The notes: generated by a model not told the origin, from the letters alone. A stretch of 64,000 nucleotides of DNA from a virus (IMGVR_UViG_3300033508_000321); one strand, 5' to 3'; positions 6,741 to 61,118 are shown, numbered from the stretch's first letter. Numbers and translations are program-made.

Positions 6741-7292
6741 ATGGTTGTTTTCGATATATACCGAGCCATACGTACAGCATTAGAAGCATCTACCATCATT
6801 GAGCACATTGGCTGGTATAATGACCAGATCAATAATGAAGAGCTTGAAACAGCCTACAATCATCCCGCCGTTTTTATCGAATTTCCTGACAATGCTTGGG
6901 AACAGCAAATGCATAGCACGTTCGGTAATACCGGTGCTCAGGCAAATGGTTACATTCAAATAAACGTACACGTGGAATTTACCCTGCTAAATGATATTAG
7001 TGATGAGGTTGATTACATGGAAAGCATCGTAGAAGAGGTTTATTACCGTTTGGTAGGTCTTTCCGGAACTAATTTTACCACATTCAAACGTTTTGCCGAT
7101 GGTGGCACACCAACAGCATCACGTGTGTACGAATGGGTACTAAAATTTTCAACAACCGGCATAGAAGAAGGTAAAGACTTAGGTGCTATAGATGTAACAG
7201 AGGGCGATACAAACCCAATAGACTTAGTGCTGAACACCGATTTAGATATTGATAACCAGATAATACGTACAGGCGATGGCAATTACATTTGA
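6741..7292 (+). CDS. Hypothetical head-tail joining / tail completion-like protein
   Basis: 183 aa. A TATATTTG box at 6708-6715 lies 26 nt upstream. The N-terminus loosely resembles DUF3168-type proteins (weak). Confidence 0.5.
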   Translation: MVVFDIYRAIRTALEASTIIEHIGWYNDQINNEELETAYNHPAVFIEFPDNAWEQQMHSTFGNTGAQANGYIQINVHVEFTLLNDISDEVDYMESIVEEVYYRLVGLSGTNFTTFKRFADGGTPTASRVYEWVLKFSTTGIEEGKDLGAIDVTEGDTNPIDLVLNTDLDIDNQIIRTGDGNYI

Positions 7293-7542
7293 GCGGCTAA
7301 CTGATAGCCGAAAAATTACCGTAAAGCGAGATGGTATTGTACAAAGAACGTTCGATGTGCAAGACAACGTAAGCATTTTGAGCACTAAAGAGGCGGGGGT
7401 AGAAAACCCAAACATGGTGCGCATGCTGAATAACTTAGAAGTGTACGAGTTTGACTGGAGAGAAGTGACCATAACACCTACCCCCGGTAGTAGAAATGAA
7501 CTGGTACAAACTTTGATCTTGAATTTTTTTTTTTTGACGTAG
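7276..7542 (+). CDS. Hypothetical virion protein, probably the 5' part of a frameshifted gene
   Basis: 88 aa. It ends 7 nt after a T12 run (7524-7535). The -1 frame is open from 7500 through the run into the next ORF. Confidence 0.5.
   Translation: MAITFERLTDSRKITVKRDGIVQRTFDVQDNVSILSTKEAGVENPNMVRMLNNLEVYEFDWREVTITPTPGSRNELVQTLILNFFFLT
7524..7535 (+). promoter_or_regulatory. T12 homopolymer: candidate -1 frameshift or transcriptional slippage site
   Basis: 'GAATTTTTTTTTTTTGAC'. A one-base back-slip (or a T13 transcript) fuses 7276-7535 in frame to 7536-8861. Confidence 0.5.
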
Positions 7543-26375: not shown

Positions 26376-26499
26376 AAAAAATGTAAAAATTTTGTGCATT
26401 TTTTACACATATTAAAAATATGTGTTCTATGTGGGCAAAATCTATATTTTTAACAAATCAATAACAAAGTAGTTAACAACCCTTTAACAATTGATGATT

Positions 26500-35292: not shown

Positions 35293-35504
35293 GAGAATCA
35301 ATAAGACTTGAAACCGGACATAAACTAGATTACTACTTCGGTGATCTGGTTTACTTGAAATCAGACCCCGAACAAAGAATGCGGATAGTGGTAGGTGTAC
35401 TGCTTAGCCCTGACAAATGCGTGTGTTATCAGTTAGCCTGTGGTGAGGTGGTAAGTACACACTATTATGTAGAAATTTCAACCGATAAAAACGTGATGTT
35501 ATGA
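35289..35504 (+). CDS. Hypothetical protein
   Basis: 71 aa. ATGA overlaps on both sides. Confidence 0.5.
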   Translation: MRESIRLETGHKLDYYFGDLVYLKSDPEQRMRIVVGVLLSPDKCVCYQLACGEVVSTHYYVEISTDKNVML

Positions 35505-36724: not shown

Positions 36725-36923
36725 TGTAGTGAGTAAAGATCACGAATTTGAGATTAAGTACACCGATGCTGCCAGTTATAAGTTGAACATCTCAGACCTT
36801 GAGAAACTAGAGCGCAAATGTAGTATGAACCGTGAGCCGGTCTTTTTGGTGGAATTCCGTCAAATTGGTAAGACCTATGCCATAGTAGAATTAGGATATT
36901 TAGAAACTCTGGTTAAGTTTTAA
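36594..36923 (+). CDS. Small PD-(D/E)xK nuclease, Holliday-junction-resolvase-like (start uncertain)
   Basis: It has the E...SG...D...ExK arrangement: 'ELKLAKRLQG', 'NSGA', 'NDVV', 'FEIKY'. ATG 36594 overlaps the recombinase gene by 131 nt. An alternative start is TTG 36657. Confidence 0.5.
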   Translation: MENHWLQAQEKPSRKQSQKQELKLAKRLQGKVTANSGAAKNQNDVVSKDHEFEIKYTDAASYKLNISDLEKLERKCSMNREPVFLVEFRQIGKTYAIVELGYLETLVKF

Positions 36924-37068
36924 CAACTTATTTACAATTTTAGGAAACTTTGTTAAAAACTTGTTAATTTCTTATAGATTTTAACAAATCATTAACAAAG
37001 TTTCCTTTTATAATTTATTGGTGTTTAACAACTTATTAACAAATGCTGCTTTATCTTTGTTGTATAAA
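36920..37068 (+). repeat. 149-bp intergenic cassette, copy A
   Basis: Direct repeat at 36920-36937 and 37025-37042. Inverted arms AGGAAACTTTGTTAA 36942-36956 and TTAACAAAGTTTCCT 36992-37006. TATCTTTG at 37052-37059. Confidence 0.9.
37052..37059 (+). promoter_or_regulatory. TAnnTTTG box of cassette A
   Basis: TATCTTTG at cassette offset 132. Confidence 0.5.
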
Positions 37069-37102
37069 TTTTTAAACAGAAAACAACTAAAATTTTAAAA
37101 TC

Positions 37103-38263
37103 ATGACAACAATCAATTTCAACCCAAAACGAACCACTCAGGTTAAAGACGATTTTCGTTTTTACAAAGTAATAGAATCAGCCTTTGAAATTAAGGCAGA
37201 GGAGGTAGCAATACCTTACGAAACGGTGTATTCGAGTCGTACGGGTATGACCATGGCAATCAGAGCACGCATCCCCGCCGATGTACGTATAGTAGATTGT
37301 GAAACCCAGCGTACGAAATTCAACGACAAAATTTCACTGTCACAAATAGGACGCAAAGGCACACCAATGATTATCCTACATGAATGGAAAGATAGTCAAA
37401 CCGTAACCTTTGCAATCAGCGAAGCAAAGTACGGTATATGGAAACAAGCAGAAACTGAACTCAATGTTTTCTGTATATACAAGTCCGACAACACAAAGGA
37501 TCATACATATCAACTTAATGTTCACACTTGTAAGAGGGATAACCTCCGTGAGCTGCATCGCATAATAAGCCCTATGGCTGGGTTTGACCAGCCAAAAATA
37601 GGTGAGGAGTCAATAAGTATATTCAAAAACTTGGTAGTTGACCGCTTCGATGATTATTTCATCACATCGAAGGGGTGTGCGTACTACAAGTTTGGCAGGT
37701 ACAATCCGCTGGTGGAGTTCGATATGCTAATTCCCGGAAATGATTATTGGGAAGTTGCGAACGAGACAGGAATGGATGAGCGTACGTACAACGTATTGAA
37801 GCGCATGCGTACTGAGTTTACGGTGGTTACATATGGTATGCTATATGCCGAAATAACCATGACCCACCTTGAAATAGGTGAGGATTTTGCTGTATTTACA
37901 AATGGTAAAAAACAGCTATATATCTACGAAGGCAGTACACAGTACTATGAGTACGAGGATGAAAAAGGCGAATGCACAGCATCTGAAATGCGTTACAGCT
38001 GCCGCAAAAAAGAAATTTTTTACTTGCGTAGCCAGAATGACGCCGCAAGAATTTTAGAAAAAATAAATAGTATATCAGACGATACCGTTTTTACGGTAAC
38101 TGATTCGTATCTTGCTGGTAACTGCGCGGTTGGTACCAGCAATTTTATGAAAAAATATAATTTAAAAAGCCCCATCAGTATTGGTGACCTAAGGCAGCAC
38201 CCTCAGTATGTCGAGTTGCTAAGTAACGCTAGATTTCTAGCGGTGCTAGTTGGGAAAGAGTAG
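37103..38263 (+). CDS. Hypothetical protein (cargo of cassette A)
   Basis: 386 aa. No motif recognised. Bracketed by cassette A and the GGGGCGAAAGCCCC hairpin. Confidence 0.7.
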   Translation: MTTINFNPKRTTQVKDDFRFYKVIESAFEIKAEEVAIPYETVYSSRTGMTMAIRARIPADVRIVDCETQRTKFNDKISLSQIGRKGTPMIILHEWKDSQTVTFAISEAKYGIWKQAETELNVFCIYKSDNTKDHTYQLNVHTCKRDNLRELHRIISPMAGFDQPKIGEESISIFKNLVVDRFDDYFITSKGCAYYKFGRYNPLVEFDMLIPGNDYWEVANETGMDERTYNVLKRMRTEFTVVTYGMLYAEITMTHLEIGEDFAVFTNGKKQLYIYEGSTQYYEYEDEKGECTASEMRYSCRKKEIFYLRSQNDAARILEKINSISDDTVFTVTDSYLAGNCAVGTSNFMKKYNLKSPISIGDLRQHPQYVELLSNARFLAVLVGKE

Positions 38264-38271
38264 TAAAAAAC

Positions 38272-38288
38272 GGGGCGAAAGCCCCTTT
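38272..38288 (+). terminator. GNRA-loop hairpin terminator GGGGC-GAAA-GCCCC (copy 1 of 3)
   Basis: Identical 14-mer at 38272, 54228 and 58956, here followed by TTT. Confidence 0.6.
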
Positions 38289-48874: not shown

Positions 48875-48906
48875 AAAACGCTGCTTAATTGCAGCGTTTT
48901 TTATTA
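48875..48906 (+). terminator. Rho-independent terminator
   Basis: AAAACGCTGC-ttaatt-GCAGCGTTTT followed by a T-rich run. Confidence 0.7.
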
Positions 48907-48926
48907 TTTTTGTTAAAATAAATGCA

Positions 48927-51168: not shown

Positions 51169-51301
51169 GCGTATATACTCGCCGACCAATTTCGGAACTC
51201 ATTCTTATAACTGATTGAAAATGTTATCGTGTAAGTGTTATTTCAGATATTTATTAACAAAGTGCGTACCCCGTTAACAATAGTTTTTGTATACTTGTCA
51301 G

Positions 51302-51336
51302 CCTGTTAGAGTGTTACAAACTTTAACAGGTTTTTT
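51302..51336 (+). terminator. Hairpin plus T-run in the 260-bp non-coding gap
   Basis: CCTGTTA-(15 nt)-TAACAGG followed by TTTTTTAATTTT. Confidence 0.4.
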
Positions 51337-51427
51337 AATTTTGTATGCTGATAATTAACAAGCTATTAACAATAAGTAAAAAGTTAATTAACTATTTTTA
51401 CATGGTCACTAAATATGTTAAAAACCG

Positions 51428-51971: not shown

Positions 51972-52225
51972 AACAACAGTTTAAAGATTGGCGAGCCGTG
52001 AAAAACGCAATAGAAAGCGGTAAATTATGCATGAAACCCACAGCACTCGAAAGGTATTTCACAGAAAGAAACATTTACTTACCTAGCATCATGCATCTAC
52101 TAGCACCAAAAGGTATAGCAGCTAGGGGCAAATCTGCCGATGCGCTTTTTTCCGCCGTTTCCTTTAACGATCCTGCTTATTTGGATGCAATTATCCAAGA
52201 TAAATACGAACGCTTAAACACATAA
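51968..52225 (+). CDS. Hypothetical protein
   Basis: 85 aa. ATGA overlap. Confidence 0.5.
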   Translation: MKQQFKDWRAVKNAIESGKLCMKPTALERYFTERNIYLPSIMHLLAPKGIAARGKSADALFSAVSFNDPAYLDAIIQDKYERLNT

Positions 52226-52313
52226 ACCGTGAATTGCGTAGATCCATTTTTGGGCACAAATGAAACATTAAGCCCAAAGCAAATAGAAAAAATCGAACAA
52301 AAAGCAAACGAAA

Positions 52314-52898
52314 ATGAAAGAATTGAAAGAAGCACTAACGAACCTAGCCCGGTACTGGGCAACACAACTGAGTAAAGCAGGCGTAAGCCCTGTTTTCCCG
52401 GAACCAAAAACAGCTACAGAAGTTAGCATCATGCAAGGACATTTGCAGTGTCCACCGGATGGTGTAGTACTTTTTAGCATAAATCCCGATACCTATGATG
52501 TAACGGTGAAAAACGATAAAGGCGAAATGCATTTTCCCGCCGGTGAAATTTACGACGTAATAAAAAGATGCGGCCAAAGTTTGGGTAAACACAAGTTCGG
52601 TAACATCGACAAACCCGGATTGAACATGCAAAAATTCTTTGTCCAGATGCTCAGACAAAAGCGTGAATACGTAGTACAGTACTTAGATTTTTGTGAAGAG
52701 TACGAAAGACTGCATAATGAGTTTTACTCAAAGCAGCCCAAAGATAATAATGCATTTCGTTGGACAGCCGATTATAATGCTCATAGGGATATAGATGCTT
52801 CACTTTTGGCACGTCACCCATACTATGAAGAGTTTAAACGTGCATACCAGTATCGTGATTTAATCAAAGCAAATTTACGGATGTGGCGGGAATCTTAG
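52314..52898 (+). CDS. Hypothetical protein
   Basis: 194 aa with an ATG start. Confidence 0.55.
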   Translation: MKELKEALTNLARYWATQLSKAGVSPVFPEPKTATEVSIMQGHLQCPPDGVVLFSINPDTYDVTVKNDKGEMHFPAGEIYDVIKRCGQSLGKHKFGNIDKPGLNMQKFFVQMLRQKREYVVQYLDFCEEYERLHNEFYSKQPKDNNAFRWTADYNAHRDIDASLLARHPYYEEFKRAYQYRDLIKANLRMWRES

Positions 52899-53146
52899 AG
52901 AAGAAAAAATCGGCAAAAGATAGGGTACTCAAAATGGCGTACCCTGTAGCCGATAAAAGGGTAAGCGGAAAAGACCTTTTAGAGCAGGGTTTAATCTTGC
53001 GAAAATTTAAACGCAAAATGCTATGTTTTGCAGAACTCACAACCGGCGAAACGCTGGTAATACCTGAAGCATTTTTTAACATGATAAACCTGCATAAAAA
53101 TGACCGAAAACGAAAAGAATCTGCTCAATCAAATAGCAGGCCTTAA
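52883..53146 (+). CDS. Hypothetical protein (start uncertain: GTG 52883 or ATG 52934)
   Basis: 87 or 70 aa. Basic C-terminus. Confidence 0.4.
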   Translation: MAGILEKKKSAKDRVLKMAYPVADKRVSGKDLLEQGLILRKFKRKMLCFAELTTGETLVIPEAFFNMINLHKNDRKRKESAQSNSRP

Positions 53147-53357
53147 AGATGAAATTACCATGCTCGAGTATGAGCTGGCAAGGCTAAAAGTGGAAAAAAT
53201 GAGCTTTAATACTATGCTGCAATCCGAGTTAAAAAAGCAAAGATTCCTGATAGCAGAAAAAGCGGACGTGAAACAAGAAGTATTACCTGATGAAACCGTA
53301 GTATGGGTAGTAGACAAAGATTCAATTTATAATAACCCTTTAATACTGATGAAATGA
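53100..53357 (+). CDS. Hypothetical coiled-coil protein
   Basis: 85 aa with an ATG start. Confidence 0.45.
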   Translation: MTENEKNLLNQIAGLKDEITMLEYELARLKVEKMSFNTMLQSELKKQRFLIAEKADVKQEVLPDETVVWVVDKDSIYNNPLILMK

Positions 53358-53734
53358 GCACACGTGCCTACATAGCAAGAAAAATAGATGATGGTTTTGA
53401 GTACATCTACTGCCACAATTCCGGTGAAGAAGACATAGCAGTATTGATAGACGATTACGGTACTGATGAAAAGGTAAAAGAACTAATATCCCTTGGTGAC
53501 ATTTCATCTTTGGGCTCGAAAGTAATCCCAAACCCAGGAAGACGTCACACATTCGAACATCCACAAAAAGACGTAACCGTAGCCTATTACCGAGACCGCA
53601 ACGAAGGCTGGTTACGAGTGAAACCGGGCAGAGTACCAGCGTTACACGAGCTGTTAGGTATAGCAGAAAGAGGAGGAATAGACTTTGTGTTTACATTTGA
53701 CAATGGTGTATGGGCTAGTTATGAGATAGTTTAA
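53354..53734 (+). CDS. Hypothetical protein
   Basis: 126 aa. ATGA overlap. Its stop lies inside the first direct repeat of cassette B. Confidence 0.55.
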   Translation: MSTRAYIARKIDDGFEYIYCHNSGEEDIAVLIDDYGTDEKVKELISLGDISSLGSKVIPNPGRRHTFEHPQKDVTVAYYRDRNEGWLRVKPGRVPALHELLGIAERGGIDFVFTFDNGVWASYEIV

Positions 53735-53879
53735 CAACTTATTTACAAATTGAGGAAACTTTGTTAAAAACTTGTTAATTTCTTATAGATTTTAACAAAT
53801 CATTAACAAAGTTTCCTTTTACAATTTTCTGGGTGTTAACAACTTATTAACAAATGTTACTTTATCTTTGTTGTATAAA
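53731..53879 (+). repeat. 149-bp intergenic cassette, copy B
   Basis: Same offsets as copy A: arms at 53753-53767 and 53803-53817, TATCTTTG at 53863-53870. The identical leader CAAATAAGAAAAACAC is shared with copy C. Confidence 0.9.
53863..53870 (+). promoter_or_regulatory. TAnnTTTG box of cassette B
   Basis: TATCTTTG, 26 nt before ATG 53897. Confidence 0.5.
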
Positions 53880-53896
53880 CAAATAAGAAAAACACA

Positions 53897-54220
53897 ATGG
53901 AAACTCAATTAGCAATCAGAACCAGACAACAAGAAATAGCTCAAACTATACTGGAACAACTAGGTGGATTAAATCGTTTAAATGCGATGTTAGGCTTAAA
54001 AGACTTGATGGTAAACGGTTATGGCCTCAGTTTCAAAATCAGCGTAAAAGCAGCCGCAAACTATGTAAACATCACATTAACCAGTGATGGTCTGTACTAC
54101 GTAGAATTGGGTAAAATTCGTGGCAAATCTTACAACATAGTAGCTAACTTTCAAGGCGTGTATGCTGACCAATTGAAAAGCATAATCGAAGATACAGCAA
54201 AAGTAAGACTATCATTATAA
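53897..54220 (+). CDS. Hypothetical protein (cargo of cassette B)
   Basis: 107 aa. Bracketed by cassette B and the GGGGCGAAAGCCCC hairpin. Confidence 0.65.
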   Translation: METQLAIRTRQQEIAQTILEQLGGLNRLNAMLGLKDLMVNGYGLSFKISVKAAANYVNITLTSDGLYYVELGKIRGKSYNIVANFQGVYADQLKSIIEDTAKVRLSL

Positions 54221-54227
54221 AAACAAA

Positions 54228-54241
54228 GGGGCGAAAGCCCC
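54228..54241 (+). terminator. GNRA-loop hairpin GGGGC-GAAA-GCCCC (copy 2 of 3)
   Basis: Identical 14-mer. The T-tract after this copy is weak. Confidence 0.45.
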
Positions 54242-54270
54242 TACTTAAAACAACAGAAAAACACCAGAGC

Positions 54271-54432
54271 ATGAAAACTTTTGAAATCGAATTTACTACC
54301 TTAGGTGGTAACACGCAATCAGTATTGGTAGACGCTTACTCGCAGCTACAAGCAATTCGCACATTTGAGAAAAACTATGCGGTGGATGAGATACTGAACA
54401 TTGAAGAAATAGAAATCCCAGAAATAGACTAA
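54271..54432 (+). CDS. Hypothetical 53-aa protein (not in the ORF track)
   Basis: ATG 54271 to TAA 54430-54432. 'MKTFEIEFTTLGGNTQSVLVDAYSQLQAIRTFEKNYAVDEILNIEEIEIPEID', hand translated. It fills the gap before the methyltransferase gene. Confidence 0.45.
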   Translation: MKTFEIEFTTLGGNTQSVLVDAYSQLQAIRTFEKNYAVDEILNIEEIEIPEID

Positions 54433-54433
54433 T

Positions 54434-55939
54434 ATGTGGAATCAAGATTTTTTCCCCACGCCGGCAGAGGTAGTATCACAGATGCTACTCGGTGAGGATT
54501 TAATCGGCAAAATAATTTTAGAGCCTTCAGCAGGTAAAGGTAACATAGTGGACATATTGGTAGAACGTGGTGCAAAAGAAGTGTTAGCGTGTGAGCAAGA
54601 ACCACAACTACGTAGAATACTCAAAGGCTGCAAAATCTTAGCCGCTGATTTTCTCACTCTTACCAGTGAGGCTGTTAGCCACATTGACTACATCATAGCA
54701 AACCCACCGTTTTCAGAGCAAGAAAAGCACATACAGCACATGATCGATATAGCACCCGATGGTTGCATCATTGTAACGTTGTGCAACTCGAATTTAACAA
54801 ACGCAAATACTACCTCACGCCATAGAATAATGAGCTACGCAAGTCAGTATGGCTATTCGCAGGATTTGGGTAGCGTTTTTAGTGATGCTGAGCGCACAAC
54901 GGATGTAAGCGTTTCAATGCTCAAAATTTTTAAACCGAAAACGGCGGAAAATGAGTTTGATGGGTATTTCGAATTAGACGATACACCAGAGGAGGATGGC
55001 GAAGGCATTATGAGCTATTCAATCATTCGGGAGTTCGTTAACCGATACGTAGGTGCGATAAAAGATTTTGACTCAGTATACGAAGCCCAAAAGCGGATGA
55101 ATAACCTAATACAGCCATTCAATAGCAGTATCGTTTTTTCCGCTCACGATGACAAAACACCACTAACACGTGAAGCATTCAAAAAGCAATTACAAAAAGC
55201 GGCGTGGAAAATGATTTTTTCGAAAATGGATATGCATAAGTACACTACCGAAAAGCTAATGACGCAGTTAAATAAATTCGTAGAACGTCAGCAACACGTG
55301 CCCTTTACCGTTAAAAATGTGTGGAAAATGATCGACATGATTGTCGGTACACATGATTCCCGGATGCAGTCTTTAATCGTAGAAATCTTTGATAAAATCA
55401 CAGCACACACACCCGATAATAAACTGGTGCAAGAAGGGTGGAAAACCAACAGCGAGTATATTGTTAACAAGCGATTTATTCTACCTTCGCACGATGTTCG
55501 AATGGGTTACAACGGTAAACCGGATTGGAACTGGAACCGAAATAATTATTTCTTAGATGACCTCACAAAAGCACTTAGGCTTGTAATGGGCAACGAGTTG
55601 GGAAAAGCAGCGAGAGCGGAATTTATTAAGTTAGAAGGTATACGTCCGGTGCAATGGTATGCCGTTGGTAGCTGCAAATGTATGCTTGAAAATGATGGTA
55701 CAATTCGTGAAGAACCCTTGGGATTCTCAGAGGTAATAAAATCGGCGGAATGGGGTGAGTGGTGTAGTTTCGGATACATAAAATTCAGATGCTACAAGAA
55801 GGGTACAGTACACGTGGAATTTCAAACAGAAGAAGTTTGGGCAAAATTTAACAACGTAGCAGCAAAAGCAAAAGGATTTCAGTTAGCAAGCAATTTCAAA
55901 CCAAATACTAAAAAGAATGGAAATAAGTTTAATTCCTAA
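54434..55939 (+). CDS. N6-adenine DNA methyltransferase with a roughly 300-aa C-terminal extension
   Basis: Motif I 'ILEPSAGKGN'. Motif IV 'IIANPPFSEQ'. Confidence 0.75.
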   Translation: MWNQDFFPTPAEVVSQMLLGEDLIGKIILEPSAGKGNIVDILVERGAKEVLACEQEPQLRRILKGCKILAADFLTLTSEAVSHIDYIIANPPFSEQEKHIQHMIDIAPDGCIIVTLCNSNLTNANTTSRHRIMSYASQYGYSQDLGSVFSDAERTTDVSVSMLKIFKPKTAENEFDGYFELDDTPEEDGEGIMSYSIIREFVNRYVGAIKDFDSVYEAQKRMNNLIQPFNSSIVFSAHDDKTPLTREAFKKQLQKAAWKMIFSKMDMHKYTTEKLMTQLNKFVERQQHVPFTVKNVWKMIDMIVGTHDSRMQSLIVEIFDKITAHTPDNKLVQEGWKTNSEYIVNKRFILPSHDVRMGYNGKPDWNWNRNNYFLDDLTKALRLVMGNELGKAARAEFIKLEGIRPVQWYAVGSCKCMLENDGTIREEPLGFSEVIKSAEWGEWCSFGYIKFRCYKKGTVHVEFQTEEVWAKFNNVAAKAKGFQLASNFKPNTKKNGNKFNS

Positions 55940-56132
55940 AAGTGGGTACGAGCACATGATAAAATTTGCGGTGCAACGTGGTGAGGTAGAAAATACAATC
56001 TACTATACCGATGGCACAATAGGCATAGAGGTAGAACCTGACGAGGCGGATGCTCAGGTAGCGTACATAAAAACGGTGCTGCTTAAGTACGATGTTTCGG
56101 AAAACGATTACACTTTGAGATATGAGCCTTAG
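55917..56132 (+). CDS. Hypothetical protein
   Basis: 71 aa. Overlaps the upstream gene by 23 nt. Confidence 0.4.
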   Translation: MEISLIPKSGYEHMIKFAVQRGEVENTIYYTDGTIGIEVEPDEADAQVAYIKTVLLKYDVSENDYTLRYEP

Positions 56133-56697
56133 TAAGAAAATCATAAAAGAATACGGCATTGACGTGAATAGCGGGGAAACTGTAGAGGTTTTCCCCCCCA
56201 CGATTGACGATATACTTATTGAGTATGCCATACGTTTACGCCGCCGTGAGCGTTTTTTCTTTCACCGGACGTATAAACGTAATCTTTCGATGCGTGGAAT
56301 GTACTTAGCGCAGATAAAACGCCTTAAAGCGGAAAATGTGAAGTTAAAGTATGATATGTTCGCATTGCAAGTTGAAACCGATAAAAAGATAGTGCAAACG
56401 TTGAAGCACCCGATACCCAAACCACCGGTAAAACGGGCGGTAAAAAATTCTGGTGAAATACCGAAAACCGTTAAAAGCATATTGACTGGCTATACAATGG
56501 TAGAGGGTGACGTGATAACTACCTTCATAAAACGCTGGGATGCATACTCGCATGAAATAAAAATGGTAAAAGTAAAGGGTGCTTACTTGTTTAACTTTTG
56601 TTTGTACGAAGGTGAAAAAATAAAAACCCGCAGCAAACTAACTACCGCTTCAACCGCAGTTATTACTAACGAATTAAAGCAAAGAATGTACGTATGA
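56122..56697 (+). CDS. Hypothetical protein
   Basis: 191 aa with an ATG start. Confidence 0.55.
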   Translation: MSLSKKIIKEYGIDVNSGETVEVFPPTIDDILIEYAIRLRRRERFFFHRTYKRNLSMRGMYLAQIKRLKAENVKLKYDMFALQVETDKKIVQTLKHPIPKPPVKRAVKNSGEIPKTVKSILTGYTMVEGDVITTFIKRWDAYSHEIKMVKVKGAYLFNFCLYEGEKIKTRSKLTTASTAVITNELKQRMYV

Positions 56698-56969
56698 TAA
56701 ACCAGAAAATTAAAGATGCTATTGAGAATGGCTATTTAGATGATAGCGTATGCGTTAACCCCGATGGTTATTTTGTAACCGTAGAAGTTAAGTTACGCAT
56801 ACCGAAGAGTTTTATGCACCAAGTTCATACAAGGCAGATAGAGAAAGGATTGAAGAAGTACGGTAAAACCATTGACGATTGCGAACCGGATGAGCATCCG
56901 TGGGAACTGATGGCGATTGAAGAAATGATCGATTTATTGGCATATTACTTTAAAAACAAGCAACAATGA
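56694..56969 (+). CDS. Hypothetical protein
   Basis: 91 aa. ATGA overlaps on both sides. Confidence 0.5.
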   Translation: MINQKIKDAIENGYLDDSVCVNPDGYFVTVEVKLRIPKSFMHQVHTRQIEKGLKKYGKTIDDCEPDEHPWELMAIEEMIDLLAYYFKNKQQ

Positions 56970-57625
56970 AAGTAGAAAGATCATTGCGTGTACTAATAAC
57001 GCATGAAGAAAGTCAAACAGTAATGGAGGCGTTTTTGAATGCCGGACATGATGCGTATAGCTGCGACTTATTGCCAGCAAGTGGTAAATACCCTGAAAGG
57101 CACTTGCAGATGGATTGCTTTGAGGCCATAAAATTTATTAAACCGGATTTTTTAGGGATGCACCCGGAGTGTACTCGATTAACAGTTGCGGCAAATAAAT
57201 ATTACAAGCCCGAATATGCTGAAAGGTTTCCAGATATACACACGCAGCGAGCCGAGGCGGTTGACCATTTTTTGAAATGCGCCGAAGCACTAGAGCACGT
57301 TGGTACGGGTTACATTGAAAACCCAATAGGCATAATGAGCAGGTTGCATAAAAAGCCAACTCAAATAGTACAACCTTATCAATTCGGACATTCTGAACGT
57401 AAAAGCACTTGTTTATGGCTTGCCGGATTGCCTACGTTGTACGCCACTAAAGTAGTTGAGCCTGATATAATCGTGCATAAAAGTGGTAGAACTGACAGCC
57501 GCTTGCACTACGAAACTCTTAAACTGCCAAGAGAGGAAAGAAGAAAAGCACGGTCAAAAACATTTCCGGGTATCGCTCAGGCAATGGCCGAACAATGGAC
57601 TAATTATTTACTTAATAAATTATAA
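56966..57625 (+). CDS. C5-cytosine-methyltransferase-like protein with a non-canonical motif I
   Basis: 'GMHPECTRL' (PC-like), 'YIENPIG' (ENV-like), 'FGHSERKSTCLW', 'RSKTFPGIAQAMAEQW'. The N-terminus is 'VLITHEESQTV' instead of a Gly-rich SAM loop. Confidence 0.5.
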   Translation: MKVERSLRVLITHEESQTVMEAFLNAGHDAYSCDLLPASGKYPERHLQMDCFEAIKFIKPDFLGMHPECTRLTVAANKYYKPEYAERFPDIHTQRAEAVDHFLKCAEALEHVGTGYIENPIGIMSRLHKKPTQIVQPYQFGHSERKSTCLWLAGLPTLYATKVVEPDIIVHKSGRTDSRLHYETLKLPREERRKARSKTFPGIAQAMAEQWTNYLLNKL

Positions 57626-57627
57626 CA

Positions 57628-58446
57628 ATGAAAGTAGAAATTTTAGCAGATTCACTGCACCGAGGCCACCGCCTCACCACTTTCCGACTCACGTTTCCTC
57701 AAATCATAGTAAAGGAAATGCTTCGGCATAGAATGTTTTCTTTCGCAAGTCTGAGTATGCGGGCTATTGGCTTAGATAGAAACATAGAAAAAATAAAGGC
57801 GGATATGTGGCGACCTTTGAGCTGGTTACCTGAGCACAAAGGTATGTGTACTGATGAGGTAATTGAAAACCGGGAAGAACTGGACGAGCTACATAATGAG
57901 CTATTCCAAATCACTATGCGATACGTAAGACAGTTGCAGCAAAGAAACGTATCCCACCAAATCGTTAACCGGTACATAGAACATTTCGGGCAAGTGCAGA
58001 TGATTGTATCAGCAACCGAATGGGAAAACTTCTACAAGTTACGCAGGGGTAAACGTGCTGAGCAGCACATAAAACTTTTGGCGGAAACGATGTACGATGC
58101 TCAAAATACGAGTACACCATACACGTCCGATGACCGCTTCTGGCATATGCCATTCGTTGGTGGTATAGAAGAAAACGTGGCGAAAGTAGCACGTGTTTCG
58201 TTTAGTCAAGATAAGGTATTCACACCAGAGGAAAATAAAAACTTGTACAAGAAACTTTTAGCAAGCGGTGAAATGTCACCATTTGAACACGTGGCCGTGG
58301 CAATGGGTAGCCGTTACTATGATTATTCACGAACCGTTACCGGTGGTTTAGAGCATGGATGGGATAAAAATTTCCGTGGTTTTATTTCTCTTCGCACGCT
58401 GGTGGAAAACCCTTTGAACGTAGACTACGTGGAAATGGCAGTGTAG
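57628..58446 (+). CDS. thyX: Flavin-dependent thymidylate synthase
   Basis: Exact ThyX signature RHRxxSxxxxSxR in 'LRHRMFSFASLSMRA'. 272 aa. Confidence 0.85.
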   Translation: MKVEILADSLHRGHRLTTFRLTFPQIIVKEMLRHRMFSFASLSMRAIGLDRNIEKIKADMWRPLSWLPEHKGMCTDEVIENREELDELHNELFQITMRYVRQLQQRNVSHQIVNRYIEHFGQVQMIVSATEWENFYKLRRGKRAEQHIKLLAETMYDAQNTSTPYTSDDRFWHMPFVGGIEENVAKVARVSFSQDKVFTPEENKNLYKKLLASGEMSPFEHVAVAMGSRYYDYSRTVTGGLEHGWDKNFRGFISLRTLVENPLNVDYVEMAV

Positions 58447-58448
58447 TT

Positions 58449-58597
58449 TTAACAACTTATTTACAATTAAAGGAAACTTTGTTAAAAACTTGTTAATTTC
58501 TAATAGATTTTAACAAATCATTAACAAAGTTTCCTTTTATAATTTATTGGTGTTTAACAACTTATTAACAAATGATGCTTTATCTTTGTTGTATAAA
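58449..58597 (+). repeat. 149-bp intergenic cassette, copy C
   Basis: Same offsets as the other copies: arms at 58471-58485 and 58521-58535, TATCTTTG at 58581-58588. Confidence 0.9.
58581..58588 (+). promoter_or_regulatory. TAnnTTTG box of cassette C
   Basis: TATCTTTG, 26 nt before ATG 58615. Confidence 0.5.
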
Positions 58598-58614
58598 CAA
58601 ATAAGAAAAACACC

Positions 58615-58941
58615 ATGAGAACTTTAACAAGCAGTTTCACAAGATTAGAGGAAAACACACTTTTTTCCGCTGAATTTCAACAAGCATTAACAGAAGTGCA
58701 AAATATGGTACTGGGATTAAGCCCAATGAAAGCCGAACAGGGAAAGTTATACGCAGCGGAAGCAGCCGGGGAACTTTCCGAGTACGAGGTTGACAAGCTG
58801 GTAGAAACTACCATAGTTGAGCACAAGAAATTCACGGCAAAGTTCTACAAATTGGAACTTAACGATGATGACCAAGGGCAGTATTCAGCTACCGAGGGTG
58901 CGTTTTTTGCCTCCGGTGTAGCCACACTAACAATATACTAG
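58615..58941 (+). CDS. Hypothetical protein (cargo of cassette C)
   Basis: 108 aa. Bracketed by cassette C and the GGGGCGAAAGCCCC hairpin. Confidence 0.65.
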   Translation: MRTLTSSFTRLEENTLFSAEFQQALTEVQNMVLGLSPMKAEQGKLYAAEAAGELSEYEVDKLVETTIVEHKKFTAKFYKLELNDDDQGQYSATEGAFFASGVATLTIY

Positions 58942-58955
58942 TAGTCACAAACAAC

Positions 58956-58972
58956 GGGGCGAAAGCCCCTTT
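58956..58972 (+). terminator. GNRA-loop hairpin GGGGC-GAAA-GCCCC (copy 3 of 3)
   Basis: Identical 14-mer followed by TTT. Confidence 0.6.
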
Positions 58973-58985
58973 AAAAAACTAAAAA

Positions 58986-59738
58986 ATGGAAAAATTAATT
59001 TTAAACCCAGTTTCAAGGGCGCACAGGAGAAACCGCCAAAGTAGAACAATTTTGGTTACCAAAACTAAAATTTATACTTTCAATGGTCAAAGTATTGACG
59101 GCGTTTGCGTTTCAGAATTAGTAGATGCAAATAAAAACGGCAAGTGGAGTACCAAAGATTATGCTGTTATTCTTGCAGAGGGTGTTTCTGTGATACACTT
59201 AAAGGAAGACTGGGAAACATGCGAATACATAAATGATGTATCGTCTGTTAAATCAATGGCTAAGGCATTAAACCTCGAAAATTCAGCACCGTCTATCGTT
59301 GCTGAGTACATAAAAAGTGAATTGCCTGACGCATGGGAACGACACCTCAGTTTCAAGAAACGGGTGGCAGCATTAGACGATGCGGGTATATCAGAAACTC
59401 TCGAGATAGAGTACAACTATGAGTTCAGGAATAATAGATGTGGGCATCTGCACTTGCTGCTTGATGAGAAAGTTTGGGATTTCAAAGAAATACCCGGAAA
59501 GCTAGTTATAAAAGAAGAAAACCATTATTCAGGACGTGGCGGAGGCGGATGCCATTACAAGTTAATAATTGATGCCAGTATCAAAGTAGAAGAACTGTAC
59601 GAAAGCGATTACGGCGATGATGCCCTTGATACTAGAGGCTGGAAAAAAGAGTATAATGGGGGGTGGGTAAAAGAAGTTGTTGCCGTAAACTCAAATTCTC
59701 CATTTGCGAATTTAGCACATATGCTCAATAAAAAATAA
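58986..59738 (+). CDS. Hypothetical protein
   Basis: 250 aa with an ATG start. No motif recognised. Confidence 0.6.
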   Translation: MEKLILNPVSRAHRRNRQSRTILVTKTKIYTFNGQSIDGVCVSELVDANKNGKWSTKDYAVILAEGVSVIHLKEDWETCEYINDVSSVKSMAKALNLENSAPSIVAEYIKSELPDAWERHLSFKKRVAALDDAGISETLEIEYNYEFRNNRCGHLHLLLDEKVWDFKEIPGKLVIKEENHYSGRGGGGCHYKLIIDASIKVEELYESDYGDDALDTRGWKKEYNGGWVKEVVAVNSNSPFANLAHMLNKK

Positions 59739-59761
59739 ATTAGCTTTTGAGGTTTAGTCAG

Positions 59762-59769
59762 TATCTTTG
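59762..59769 (+). promoter_or_regulatory. TAnnTTTG box upstream of the lysozyme gene
   Basis: TATCTTTG. It lies inside the longer track ORF (59747), which supports ATG 59816 as the start. Confidence 0.45.
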
Positions 59770-59815
59770 TGTTTTCTCTGGGATAAATACCCGGCTAAAC
59801 ACTAAATTTCAAAAT

Positions 59816-60292
59816 ATGAAACTAATTTTAACAATCATTTTTTCCGCCTTTTTTCTTTCAGCATACGCACCAAGTGAAAAGGTAAGCTACTCAATCATGA
59901 GTCACTACGAAAGCATAGTGCAGTACATAAAAGACCATGAAGGTTTCTCTAGTACAGTGTATAATGATAACGGTTATCAGGCCATAGGGTACGGTGTAAG
60001 GCTTTTAAACCTGAGCTACGTACCTGATACGGTGGACAAAAAAGCGGCGGAAAAAATGCTTAGAGCGGTGTTCGATAAAAACATACAGTACATAGAACAC
60101 CACTACCCTAGATTACCAGAAAATAAAAAATTGGCCTTAGCTCATCTCTCATATTGTGTGGGCATTGGTACAGTGATAAAGTATAATGGAATTTTGCCGG
60201 AAAAAACATTCGGCCAAAGTATAAACCTACGTAATTTTGAAAAACGTATATGGACACAATTAGTAAGGAAGAGTTTATTGAAGCGGTTTTAA
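59816..60292 (+). CDS. Endolysin, T4-type lysozyme (GH24-like) with an N-terminal signal peptide
   Basis: 'MKLILTIIFSAFFLSAYA|PS' looks like a signal peptide. 'HEGFSSTVYNDNGYQAIGYG' has the E-x8-D spacing and aligns with T4 lysozyme '[21 protein letters not shown]' (from memory). Confidence 0.65.
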   Translation: MKLILTIIFSAFFLSAYAPSEKVSYSIMSHYESIVQYIKDHEGFSSTVYNDNGYQAIGYGVRLLNLSYVPDTVDKKAAEKMLRAVFDKNIQYIEHHYPRLPENKKLALAHLSYCVGIGTVIKYNGILPEKTFGQSINLRNFEKRIWTQLVRKSLLKRF

Positions 60293-60423
60293 AAGGCATT
60301 ATACCGCACCTGAGCACGTATGATGCTACGCATCTGCTACAGCAAGTAGAAAGCCTGTATGGTCGGAAAACCATTGAAGAAGCCATCTTATTTTTACAAA
60401 TGACTTACACCGGCAGAGTATGA
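60250..60423 (+). CDS. Hypothetical 57-aa protein (not in the ORF track)
   Basis: ATG 60250 to TGA 60421-60423. The stop overlaps the next ATG (ATGAATG). 'MDTISKEEFIEAVLKGIIPHLSTYDATHLLQQVESLYGRKTIEEAILFLQMTYTGRV'. Confidence 0.4.
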   Translation: MDTISKEEFIEAVLKGIIPHLSTYDATHLLQQVESLYGRKTIEEAILFLQMTYTGRV

Positions 60424-60848
60424 ATGATGCAATGTTTAGCAGTAAGAGGCATGACTACGAAACACCGTTGGATTTTTTCGCTTTGCTCAATGAGCAGTAC
60501 TTCTTCGATTTGGATGTGTGTGCAAGCAGTGCAAATACCAAGTGCTCGAATTTCTTTTCGGTAGATGATAACGGTCTGGAAAAAGAATGGTACGGAACGT
60601 GTTGGATGAATCCACCCTATGGTCGTGAAATCGGGAAATGGGTAGCAAAAGCGGCAAGCGAAGCCGAGAAAGGAATTACCATTGTAGCGTTGCTACCTGC
60701 CAGACCAGACACGAAATGGTTTCACCAACACATCTACGGTAAACACGAAATACAGTTTATCAAAGGGCGTCTAAAATTTGTTGGTGCCCCTAGCTCAGCC
60801 CCGTTTCCTTCAATGCTCGTAATATTTCGCAAAGAATGGAAGCAGTAA
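60420..60848 (+). CDS. Phage-type N6-adenine DNA methyltransferase (Dam-like small family)
   Basis: 'YETPLDFF', 'DVCAS', 'WMNPPYGREIGKWVAKA' (NPPY), 'LLPARPDTKWFH'. Confidence 0.8.
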   Translation: MNDAMFSSKRHDYETPLDFFALLNEQYFFDLDVCASSANTKCSNFFSVDDNGLEKEWYGTCWMNPPYGREIGKWVAKAASEAEKGITIVALLPARPDTKWFHQHIYGKHEIQFIKGRLKFVGAPSSAPFPSMLVIFRKEWKQ

Positions 60849-60925
60849 TAACCGCCTGTATACTGGGCACGATTTTTATAGTTTGTTTAATTGATTATAC
60901 GTTATTAGATGAAAAAGACGATTGA
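60836..60925 (+). CDS. 29-aa membrane peptide candidate (not in the ORF track)
   Basis: 'MEAVITACILGTIFIVCLIDYTLLDEKDD', hand translated. It overlaps both neighbours. Confidence 0.3.
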   Translation: MEAVITACILGTIFIVCLIDYTLLDEKDD

Positions 60926-61118
60926 ATCAGATTTGCCGGTACACGATAAAATACGCATAGCGCACGTGCATGGTATTCGAGAATTTAAACTCATAGCAAA
61001 AAACACGCAGGAAATTGCATCTGCAAAAAACATAGCAAGTCAGCTACGCTACAAAGTAAAAGAGAGCCGAAATTGGTTTACCGGCGTGGTTACATTAAAA
61101 TTCAAATGGACGTTATGA
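60909..61118 (+). CDS. Hypothetical protein
   Basis: 69 aa with an ATG start. Confidence 0.45.
   Translation: MKKTIESDLPVHDKIRIAHVHGIREFKLIAKNTQEIASAKNIASQLRYKVKESRNWFTGVVTLKFKWTL

Follow-up and report, generated by a model that had tools for sequence, protein, structure and literature searches.

A repeated intergenic module with a predicted terminator and promoter lies between a thyX-like gene and an orphan gene in an uncultured microbial-mat phage

The stretch of DNA analysed here, hereafter the window, comprises 64,000 nucleotides (nt) of an uncultured virus (IMGVR_UViG_3300033508_000321), has 39.5% G+C, and carries nearly all of its long open reading frames (ORFs) on the plus strand. Between positions 58449 and 58972 it holds a compact unit, in which an intergenic module (copy C of a repeated element) is followed by an ORF of 108 amino acids (aa) without assigned family (an ORFan, the cargo of the module) and then by a small hairpin. 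The parts of this unit are the following.

58444–58446, plus strand: stop codon of the ThyX-like gene, in contact with the module.
58445–58614, plus strand: module of copy C, the third of the three copies in the window.
58449–58466, plus strand: pair 1, imperfect tandem half-sites TTAACAA-N4-TTTACAA, kept in four of four copies.
58469–58537, plus strand: long two-tier hairpin of 17 + 7 base pairs, predicted intrinsic terminator of the upstream unit.
58538–58553, plus strand: TTTT-ATAATTT tail and spacer to the promoter, in which copy B differs from A and C.
58554–58571, plus strand: pair 4, perfect TTAACAA-N4-TTAACAA in place of a −35 element, at which an OmpR/PhoB-type activator may bind.
58581–58588, plus strand: −7 box TATCTTTG, fitting TAnnTTTG of Bacteroidota sigma-A.
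58593–58614, plus strand: A-rich leader of about 22 nt with no Shine–Dalgarno sequence and with A at −3, nearly identical to the leader of copy B.
58615, plus strand: start codon ATG of the ORF, after an A-rich stretch.
58615–58941, plus strand: 108-aa ORFan (MRTLTSSF...), with no Pfam, PHROG, or NCBIfam family.
58956–58969, plus strand: small GGGGC-GAAA-GCCCC hairpin (GGGGCGAAAGCCCC) with five G–C pairs and a GNRA loop, −11.4 kcal/mol.

The arms of the long hairpin consist of an inverted pair of TTAACAA pairs (58479–58496 on the minus strand and 58510–58527 on the plus strand), extended by GGAAAC/GTTTCC, and the copy C hairpin folds with −27.5 kcal/mol (z −6.7, equalled in 0 of 200 shuffles), the same fold being obtained within the whole module. 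Over copies A, B, and C the energies run from −25.7 to −27.5 kcal/mol (z −5.6 to −6.7), and each of these hairpins is followed by UUUU. Pair 4 lies 44 nt (4 × 11) downstream of pair 3, the four pairs of a module being phased at 11 bp, and 9 nt separate the perfect pair from the −7 box in A, B, and C, as they also do at 26473; the 18-mer around the box is present in the three modules and nowhere else in the window. From the sigma-A box of Flavobacterium, which reads TAnnTTTG at −12 to −5 (PMC9723704), the start of transcription is predicted near 58593. As for the leader, the mRNAs of Bacteroidota are described as being without Shine–Dalgarno sequences (PMC6847099). The initial annotation had proposed that the cassette drives the 108-aa gene, and the succession of TTAACAA pair, 9-nt spacing, TATCTTTG, and A-rich leader agrees with this proposal, supporting a predicted promoter before the ORF; the proposal is refined below to that of an operon boundary.

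The module belongs to the single long direct-repeat family of the window (183 nt), whose members start at 36916 (A), 53727 (B), and 58445 (C) and share one orientation. It is indeed the third copy of a cassette, as first described, and the start-to-start distances of 16811 nt (A–B) and 4718 nt (B–C) match the 16.8 and 4.7 kb given for copies in direct orientation. Identity to copy A over the 183-nt repeat is 85% for B and 91% for C, and over a 149-nt core the copies differ at 4 (A/C), 10 (A/B), and 12 (B/C) positions, the identity between cores being 92–97%. The two other copies in the window are as follows.

36916–38285, plus strand: copy A, comprising the module, a 386-aa gene without known function, and the closing hairpin GGGGCGAAAGCCCC.
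53727–54241, plus strand: copy B, comprising the module, a 107-aa gene (phrog_9437), and the closing hairpin GGGGCGAAAGCCCC.

The cargo ORFs behind the modules differ (386, 107, and 108 aa in A, B, and C, respectively), and no similarity was detected between the cargoes of B and C (E 1.9). A fourth copy (D) is found past the end of the window, on the IMG/VR contig L001 (11,107 nt, 99% identical to the window), whose positions 6976–7304 carry the unit, with the module at 6976–7090 and its own hairpin at 7291, so that the original count of three is right for the window and incomplete overall. The same contig joins the window end to the window start, so that the map closes into a circle of about 66.2 kb, and the ThyX-like protein is recorded on a contig of 66,454 nt. 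In copy D exactly the 44 nt separating the third from the fourth TTAACAA pair are gone, and with them the 3′ arm of the long hairpin; the remaining fold amounts to −13.3 kcal/mol (z −1.7), whereas the other copies reach about −26. The cargo frame of copy D stays open over 66 codons but has no ATG, and it looks like a decaying copy. Each module copy fits precisely from a stop codon to a start codon, always in one orientation, and the positions that vary among the four fall in the apical loop, the linkers, and the spacer after the U-run, sparing the half-sites, the stems, and the −7 box. Duplication or recombination of the module is the probable origin of the four copies, which have probably been kept alike mainly by selection on their functional parts.

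Beyond this genome, a distant-mode search of GenBank phages with 57600–59800 gave no match, and the module patterns were found in IMG/VR and the JGI metagenomes in L001 alone, in no other phage or metagenome contig, the other pattern matches having in common with it no more than a TTGTTAA pair or the 19-mer that surrounds the −7 box. A search of IMG/VR for relatives of the ThyX-like protein, of a RecA-like protein, and of the 250-aa protein encoded downstream of copy C returned the same phage or nothing, and no more distant relative sharing the gene order was found. The lineage of the phage is marked by a Mu-like portal and gp36-like head genes.

The 108-aa ORF was found at 58615–58941 as described in the initial annotation, and its designation as an orphan gene was borne out by both protein collections that were searched: a word-based search of 5.8 billion clustered proteins returned its own 94%-identical strain variant as the sole match, and a full HMMER pass over 1.84 billion representatives returned the same variant again. 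A weak repetitive HMMER match (E 9e-4) was regarded as spurious, and a search of the ESM Atlas gave an uninformative top score of 0.51. The protein is acidic (isoelectric point 4.5, net charge about −8), and its AF2 single-sequence model is all-helical, with five helices, at low confidence (pLDDT 60, pTM 0.38). Compared with a strain variant contig (L002), codons 1–60 of the ORF are identical, and codons 61–108 carry 9 synonymous and 7 non-synonymous differences (ratio of non-synonymous to synonymous rates, dN/dS, 0.18); from these small counts the ORF appears to be a translated gene under purifying selection. When 57628–58941 of the window is compared with 344–1657 of the variant, the two are identical through the whole of thyX (819 nt), through the module (168 nt), and up to nucleotide 180 of the ORF; beyond this point the divergence jumps to about 7–12% (about 11% from codon 61 onward), and this abrupt change points to a recombination breakpoint inside the ORFan. 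The codon adaptation of the ORF (0.692) is the lowest among ten genes compared (mean 0.744, standard deviation 0.025), about 2 standard deviations under the phage mean, which is a weak signal at 108 codons, and its GC fraction is 0.431 versus 0.396.

The small hairpin GGGGCGAAAGCCCC occurs in the window exactly at 38272, 54228, and 58956, each time right behind a cargo ORF; allowing two mismatches gives no further sites, about 0.1 sites are expected by chance, and a count of three was reached in 0 of 100 shuffles. The hairpin reported as identical at 58956–58969 is therefore exact in all three units. In the four copies its flanks comprise a conserved A-rich 5′ side and one to three T following on the plus strand, and, there being no plus-strand U-run, it is not a canonical intrinsic terminator. 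Genes without a −7 box begin 16 nt (the 250-aa gene) and 30 nt (a 53-aa gene) past the hairpin, and with such promoterless genes closely behind it the hairpin cannot be a full plus-strand terminator. It may rather act as a leaky terminator or as a stabiliser of the mRNA 3′ end, raising the message of the first gene above the rest. A role as a stop for antisense transcription was rejected, one weak antisense promoter candidate being found behind C and none behind A and B. No Rfam family was recognised in the module (best 20–26 bits versus cut-offs of 39–249), and a preQ1 riboswitch match at 58935–58988 (20 bits, cut-off 39) was attributed to chance, made up only of the copy C hairpin and the A-rich AAAAAACTAA tail.

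Downstream of copy C, two further features are needed.

58986–59738, plus strand: 250-aa gene with no assigned function, promoterless, no −7 box following the C hairpin.
58941–59761, plus strand: 821-nt segment containing the small hairpin and the 250-aa gene, absent in the strain variant L002.

Judged from this arrangement, the 250-aa gene is probably read through from the module C promoter. The strain variant joins 58940 to 59762 and so brings the stop codon of the ORFan directly to the −7 box of a lysozyme-like gene, and the same 821-nt skip is found in a contig of run X2 (2020 microbial-mat sample). At most 4 nt of microhomology is shared by the ends of this indel, one of which is at the ORF stop and the other at the next promoter, both outside the repeats. 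The indel separates two strain lineages (1650–1670 of L002). All strain-level variants carry module C and its ORF, and none is without the unit. One further contig of run X2 tracks the window until 9 nt into thyX (57636) and then continues with unlike sequence, which suggests that a strain exists with something else in place of thyX.

The module is preceded by a long run of genes, the last of which is listed here.

57628–58446, plus strand: ThyX-like gene (Pfam Thy1, E 1.2e-15), the last gene of the unit starting at module B.

The placement of the cassette directly after thyX, as first reported, is exact, the module abutting the stop codon of this gene at 58444–58446. Its NCBIfam thyX score is 49 bits, under the cut-off of 87.9. 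The protein is very isolated, with a best match outside the phage of 33% identity, and its gene starts 2 nt after a methyltransferase-like gene. From 54241 to 58446, a simple gene map has no gap of at least 40 nt save a 50-nt one that holds the small hairpin, and no −7 box was found in the intergenic gaps of this interval, so that the genes from cargo B through thyX can be taken as one nine-gene unit; its members include cargo B, the 53-aa gene, a 501-aa methyltransferase-like gene, three small genes, a 219-aa methyltransferase gene, and thyX. We infer that this upstream unit extends from the promoter of module B to the hairpin of module C. Elsewhere in the window, canonical plus-strand terminators stand right before −7 boxes (48875–48900 before 48905, and 51300–51332 before 51336), so that the phage also has unique versions of the terminator–promoter junction, at 48875–48912 and 51300–51343. 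Since these two other −7 boxes are directly preceded by canonical terminators, a terminator followed by a promoter is the general layout of this phage, and the four modules are a repeated edition of the terminator–promoter grammar of the genome. On the sequence evidence, module C would be foremost an operon boundary, that is, the terminator of the B-to-thyX unit together with a restart.

We therefore favour, with a probability of roughly 0.6, the reading that module C is an intergenic punctuation of the promoter-early stem-loop (PeSL) type. The course of events that we infer, including termination, initiation, the identity of the activator, and the role of the small hairpin, would be as follows. 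RNA polymerase starting from the module B promoter would transcribe cargo B, the 53-aa gene, the methyltransferase genes, and thyX, and would then halt at the long AU-rich hairpin and its U-run (58469–58545). About 50 nt further on, a host sigma-A polymerase would restart near 58593 from TATCTTTG, probably with the aid of an OmpR/PhoB-type winged-helix activator bound in tandem on the TTAACAA pair at the −35 position. The acidic 108-aa ORFan would be the first and most strongly expressed product of the new transcript. The small GNRA hairpin would end or stabilise part of the transcripts, and the remainder would reach the promoterless 250-aa gene.

As to the protein that reads the TTAACAA pairs, an exact-pattern scan for the pair plus the −7 box in 185,579 species genomes gave at least 80 loci, mostly of Bacteroidota among the matches listed. 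The first downstream genes at 51 of the listed loci include those for PstS (Ignavibacteriaceae) and a protein with a VTC polyphosphate domain (Sphingobacteriales), and further among these 51 are genes for an endonuclease I, a phosphodiesterase-type enzyme (Bacteroidales), a porin, TonB-dependent receptors, and two OmpR/PhoB-type regulators. The Rikenellaceae regulator among the proteins so found scored best against PhoB models, yet under their cut-offs. When two DNA-binding domains of this PhoB-like regulator (L118) were modelled on 58549–58580, they were placed in tandem and contacted both half-sites. Our best guess is that an OmpR/PhoB-type protein reads the pairs, and it is possible that the activator is encoded by the phage. 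Seven loci of Pedobacter/Sphingobacteriaceae carry a perfect TTAACAA pair and TATCTTTG, behind which non-coding DNA is conserved over at least 215 nt (L050 470–720, L060 6826–7076, L068 3644–3894, L081 2616–2866, L099 2697–2947, L104 213–463, and L115 3959–4209); in this stretch no ORF and no Rfam match was found, differing genes lie beyond it, and a promoter of this type may there drive a small RNA or a repeated element.

Several observations weigh against the operon-boundary reading or parts of it. The long hairpin is AU-rich, is longer than textbook terminators, and was not flagged by a simple terminator scan. The −33 TTTG element is not evident, its place being filled by the TTAACAA pair, and the host is a presumed one only. 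The small hairpin is terminator-like on the minus strand only, where a T-run is present, a feature that the proposed course of events leaves unexplained. The Pho-type idea comes down to a handful of names among the 51 listed genes, many of the others being unrelated to phosphate; the modelled regulator–DNA complex scored 0.75, versus 0.51 for the best shuffled DNA, with a tool that gives no verdict for protein–DNA complexes; and an OmpR/PhoB-type domain was present in none of ten phage proteins near TTAACAA-pair promoters.

Instead of punctuating transcription, the cassettes might above all be recombination joints, at which RecA-aided exchange deletes, duplicates, or circularises segments and swaps cargo. 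The phage-encoded recombinase noted at 35501 in the initial annotation is indeed RecA-like (E 1.5e-22), and RecA-like and resolvase-like genes lie just upstream of copy A. Such joints would also fit the cores of 92–97% identity that frame cargo genes without detectable likeness to one another, the same 14-nt hairpin closing four of four units, and the exact 44-nt loss from pair 3 to pair 4 in copy D, as expected from exchange or slippage between internal repeats; modular shuffling and mini-circles provide a precedent in the PeSL cassettes (PMC2839356). The contigs that span a module speak otherwise. All nine of them (two for A, L130 and L131; three for B, L047, L048, and L049; four for C, L001/L003, L004, and L002), taken from assemblies of four samples, keep their parental flanks, none being in recombinant order, and the bases telling B from A and C are identical across all of them, these constant copy-specific bases giving no sign of ongoing homogenisation. 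No B–C joint was found when the Logan contigs of four mat runs were compared with 52000–61000; these contigs break at repeats longer than the word size, so that rare recombinants could escape detection.

Two irregularities at the edges of contigs touch on the same question. In runs X1 and X2 the contig of cargo B (53836) begins with 9–10 nt of the spacer of A/C type, and at the 3′ border of the module loose ends (58596–58597; runs X1, X2, and X4) lead to two further leaders, one a shorter A-type leader and one new. These odd starts and leaders may represent hybrid or variant cassettes in co-occurring strains, as exchange between copies would produce, or the assembler may have passed from one copy to another within the 36 nt common to B and C, which would equally explain the hybrid-looking contig start. 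The initial annotation had held that recombination between the copies could delete or amplify the methyltransferase/ThyX segment, and had named deletions or duplications with junctions in the cassettes as the sign to look for. In the contigs no such junction appeared, and the only nearby indel, that of 821 nt, which is also the sole structural variant near C, has its junctions outside the repeats. The proposed exchange is thus plausible, given the RecA-like and resolvase-like genes and the PeSL precedent, but is unseen in the nine contigs, and we regard recombination as the chief role of the cassettes as unlikely. A broader combination, in which the modules and GNRA hairpins make up a working gene-shuffling system (swapping, duplicating, and forming mini-circles), the palindrome is both an RNA terminator and an array read by a phosphate-sensing PhoB-type activator, and the ORFans are strongly expressed only under host phosphate starvation, appears to us somewhat more doubtful still.

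The clusters of TTAACAA could alternatively be arrays for a phage protein, such as a CII-like activator, an iteron-binding replication initiator, or a partition protein, the hairpin being then a by-product of inverted sites. Four pairs per module, their 11-bp phasing, and the 44 nt between pairs 3 and 4 would suit an array of this kind; lambda CII binds direct repeats flanking the −35 region, and it would be strange if a lytic phage made many of its non-structural genes dependent on phosphate starvation. Yet the pairing of the stem runs 7 nt past the half-sites (GGAAAC.../...GTTTCC), and this complementarity points to selection for pairing itself. Moreover, pair 4 stands at a fixed 9 nt from the −7 box, the same layout of pair and box precedes phosphate-related genes in bacterial chromosomes, and four dispersed origins or centromeres would be unusual, which makes this explanation improbable in our estimation.

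Little credence, to a similar degree, is given to the view that the unit is a moron, a foreign self-contained promoter–gene–terminator set recently inserted between thyX and its former neighbour. The module does begin at the thyX stop codon, and its cargo is without homologues and combines the lowest codon adaptation (0.692 against the mean of 0.744) with a slightly higher GC fraction (0.431 against 0.396). Against a recent foreign insertion, the unit is present in every variant, its 5′ module is an element that the phage itself carries in repeated form and not foreign DNA, 108 codons yield no more than a weak codon signal, and the 3′ hairpin falls short of a full terminator. It is hardly credible that the module is a selfish mobile element (a homing element or one resembling miniature inverted-repeat transposable elements) or a structured small RNA, as a near-identical dispersed repeat with a strong fold might suggest, because neither terminal inverted repeats nor target duplications are seen at its ends, none of the cargo genes showed a transposase or endonuclease family, it occurs in no other phage or metagenome contig and has no Rfam match, and each copy runs exactly from stop to start codon in one orientation.

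If module C is an operon boundary of the kind favoured above, it represents a compact candidate terminator–promoter part for Bacteroidota genetics, and the four genes behind the modules, including the 108-aa orphan, are predicted to be strongly and separately expressed accessory candidates for host takeover or anti-defence. If it is true that the activator is the host PhoB, the expression of phage accessory genes would be linked to phosphate supply.

The unit is worth comparing with three known arrangements. Morons of lambdoid phages, described by Hendrix and colleagues, are extra genes that have their own promoter and a downstream hairpin and lie between the genes of a longer unit. The unit of copy C resembles them in being a single extra gene with a promoter and a downstream hairpin inside a longer unit, whereas it is controlled by the repeated module of the phage itself, is lacking from no relative, and ends in a hairpin that is not a full terminator. 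With the Pho box, as recognised by PhoB of Escherichia coli, by PhoP of Bacillus subtilis, and in the Pho-box promoters of cyanophages, the promoter of the module shares two 7-nt direct repeats with a 4-nt spacer that replace the −35 element, as well as extra pairs upstream in helical phase. The half-site TTAACA also resembles the PhoP half-site of B. subtilis, and the same layout precedes pstS and other phosphate-related genes in some genomes of the FCB group. It differs in that the genes driven here are phage genes of unassigned function rather than genes for phosphate uptake. The sequence of a Bacteroidota Pho box was not found in the literature searched, in which PMC3547664 only names the element.

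The closest likeness is that to the PeSL cassettes of the T4-type phages RB49 and phi1 (Arbiol et al. 2010, PMC2839356), which run from a stop codon through a stem-loop terminator and a strong host-type promoter to a start codon and are repeated before ORFans in plastic regions of the genome (PMC2839356). Here, too, one intergenic module extends from the upstream stop to the downstream start, unites a predicted stem-loop terminator or attenuator and a promoter of putative host type, and is repeated within the genome before ORFans, beside a segment that varies among near-identical phages. There are also clear differences. Four copies are present here versus about 50 in the PeSL family, and they are near-identical over about 150 nt, whereas PeSL copies have only motifs in common. 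A Bacteroidota-type promoter is predicted, with a −7 box and a tandem activator site, in contrast to the sigma-70 promoters of PeSL; the hairpin is built from inverted activator sites; and a separate, identical GNRA hairpin closes each first gene. Exchange between copies is unobserved here (nine contigs), and the phage is not T4-like, having Mu-like portal and head genes. With Mu-like head genes and a Bacteroidota-type promoter, the module is to be regarded as an analogue of PeSL and not as a member of the same element lineage. The terminator–promoter cassette is a fairly ordinary phage design, already known from T4-type phages, and the present module indicates that this design also exists in an unrelated uncultured mat phage, where it appears to have been rebuilt from Bacteroidota promoter parts and activator sites.

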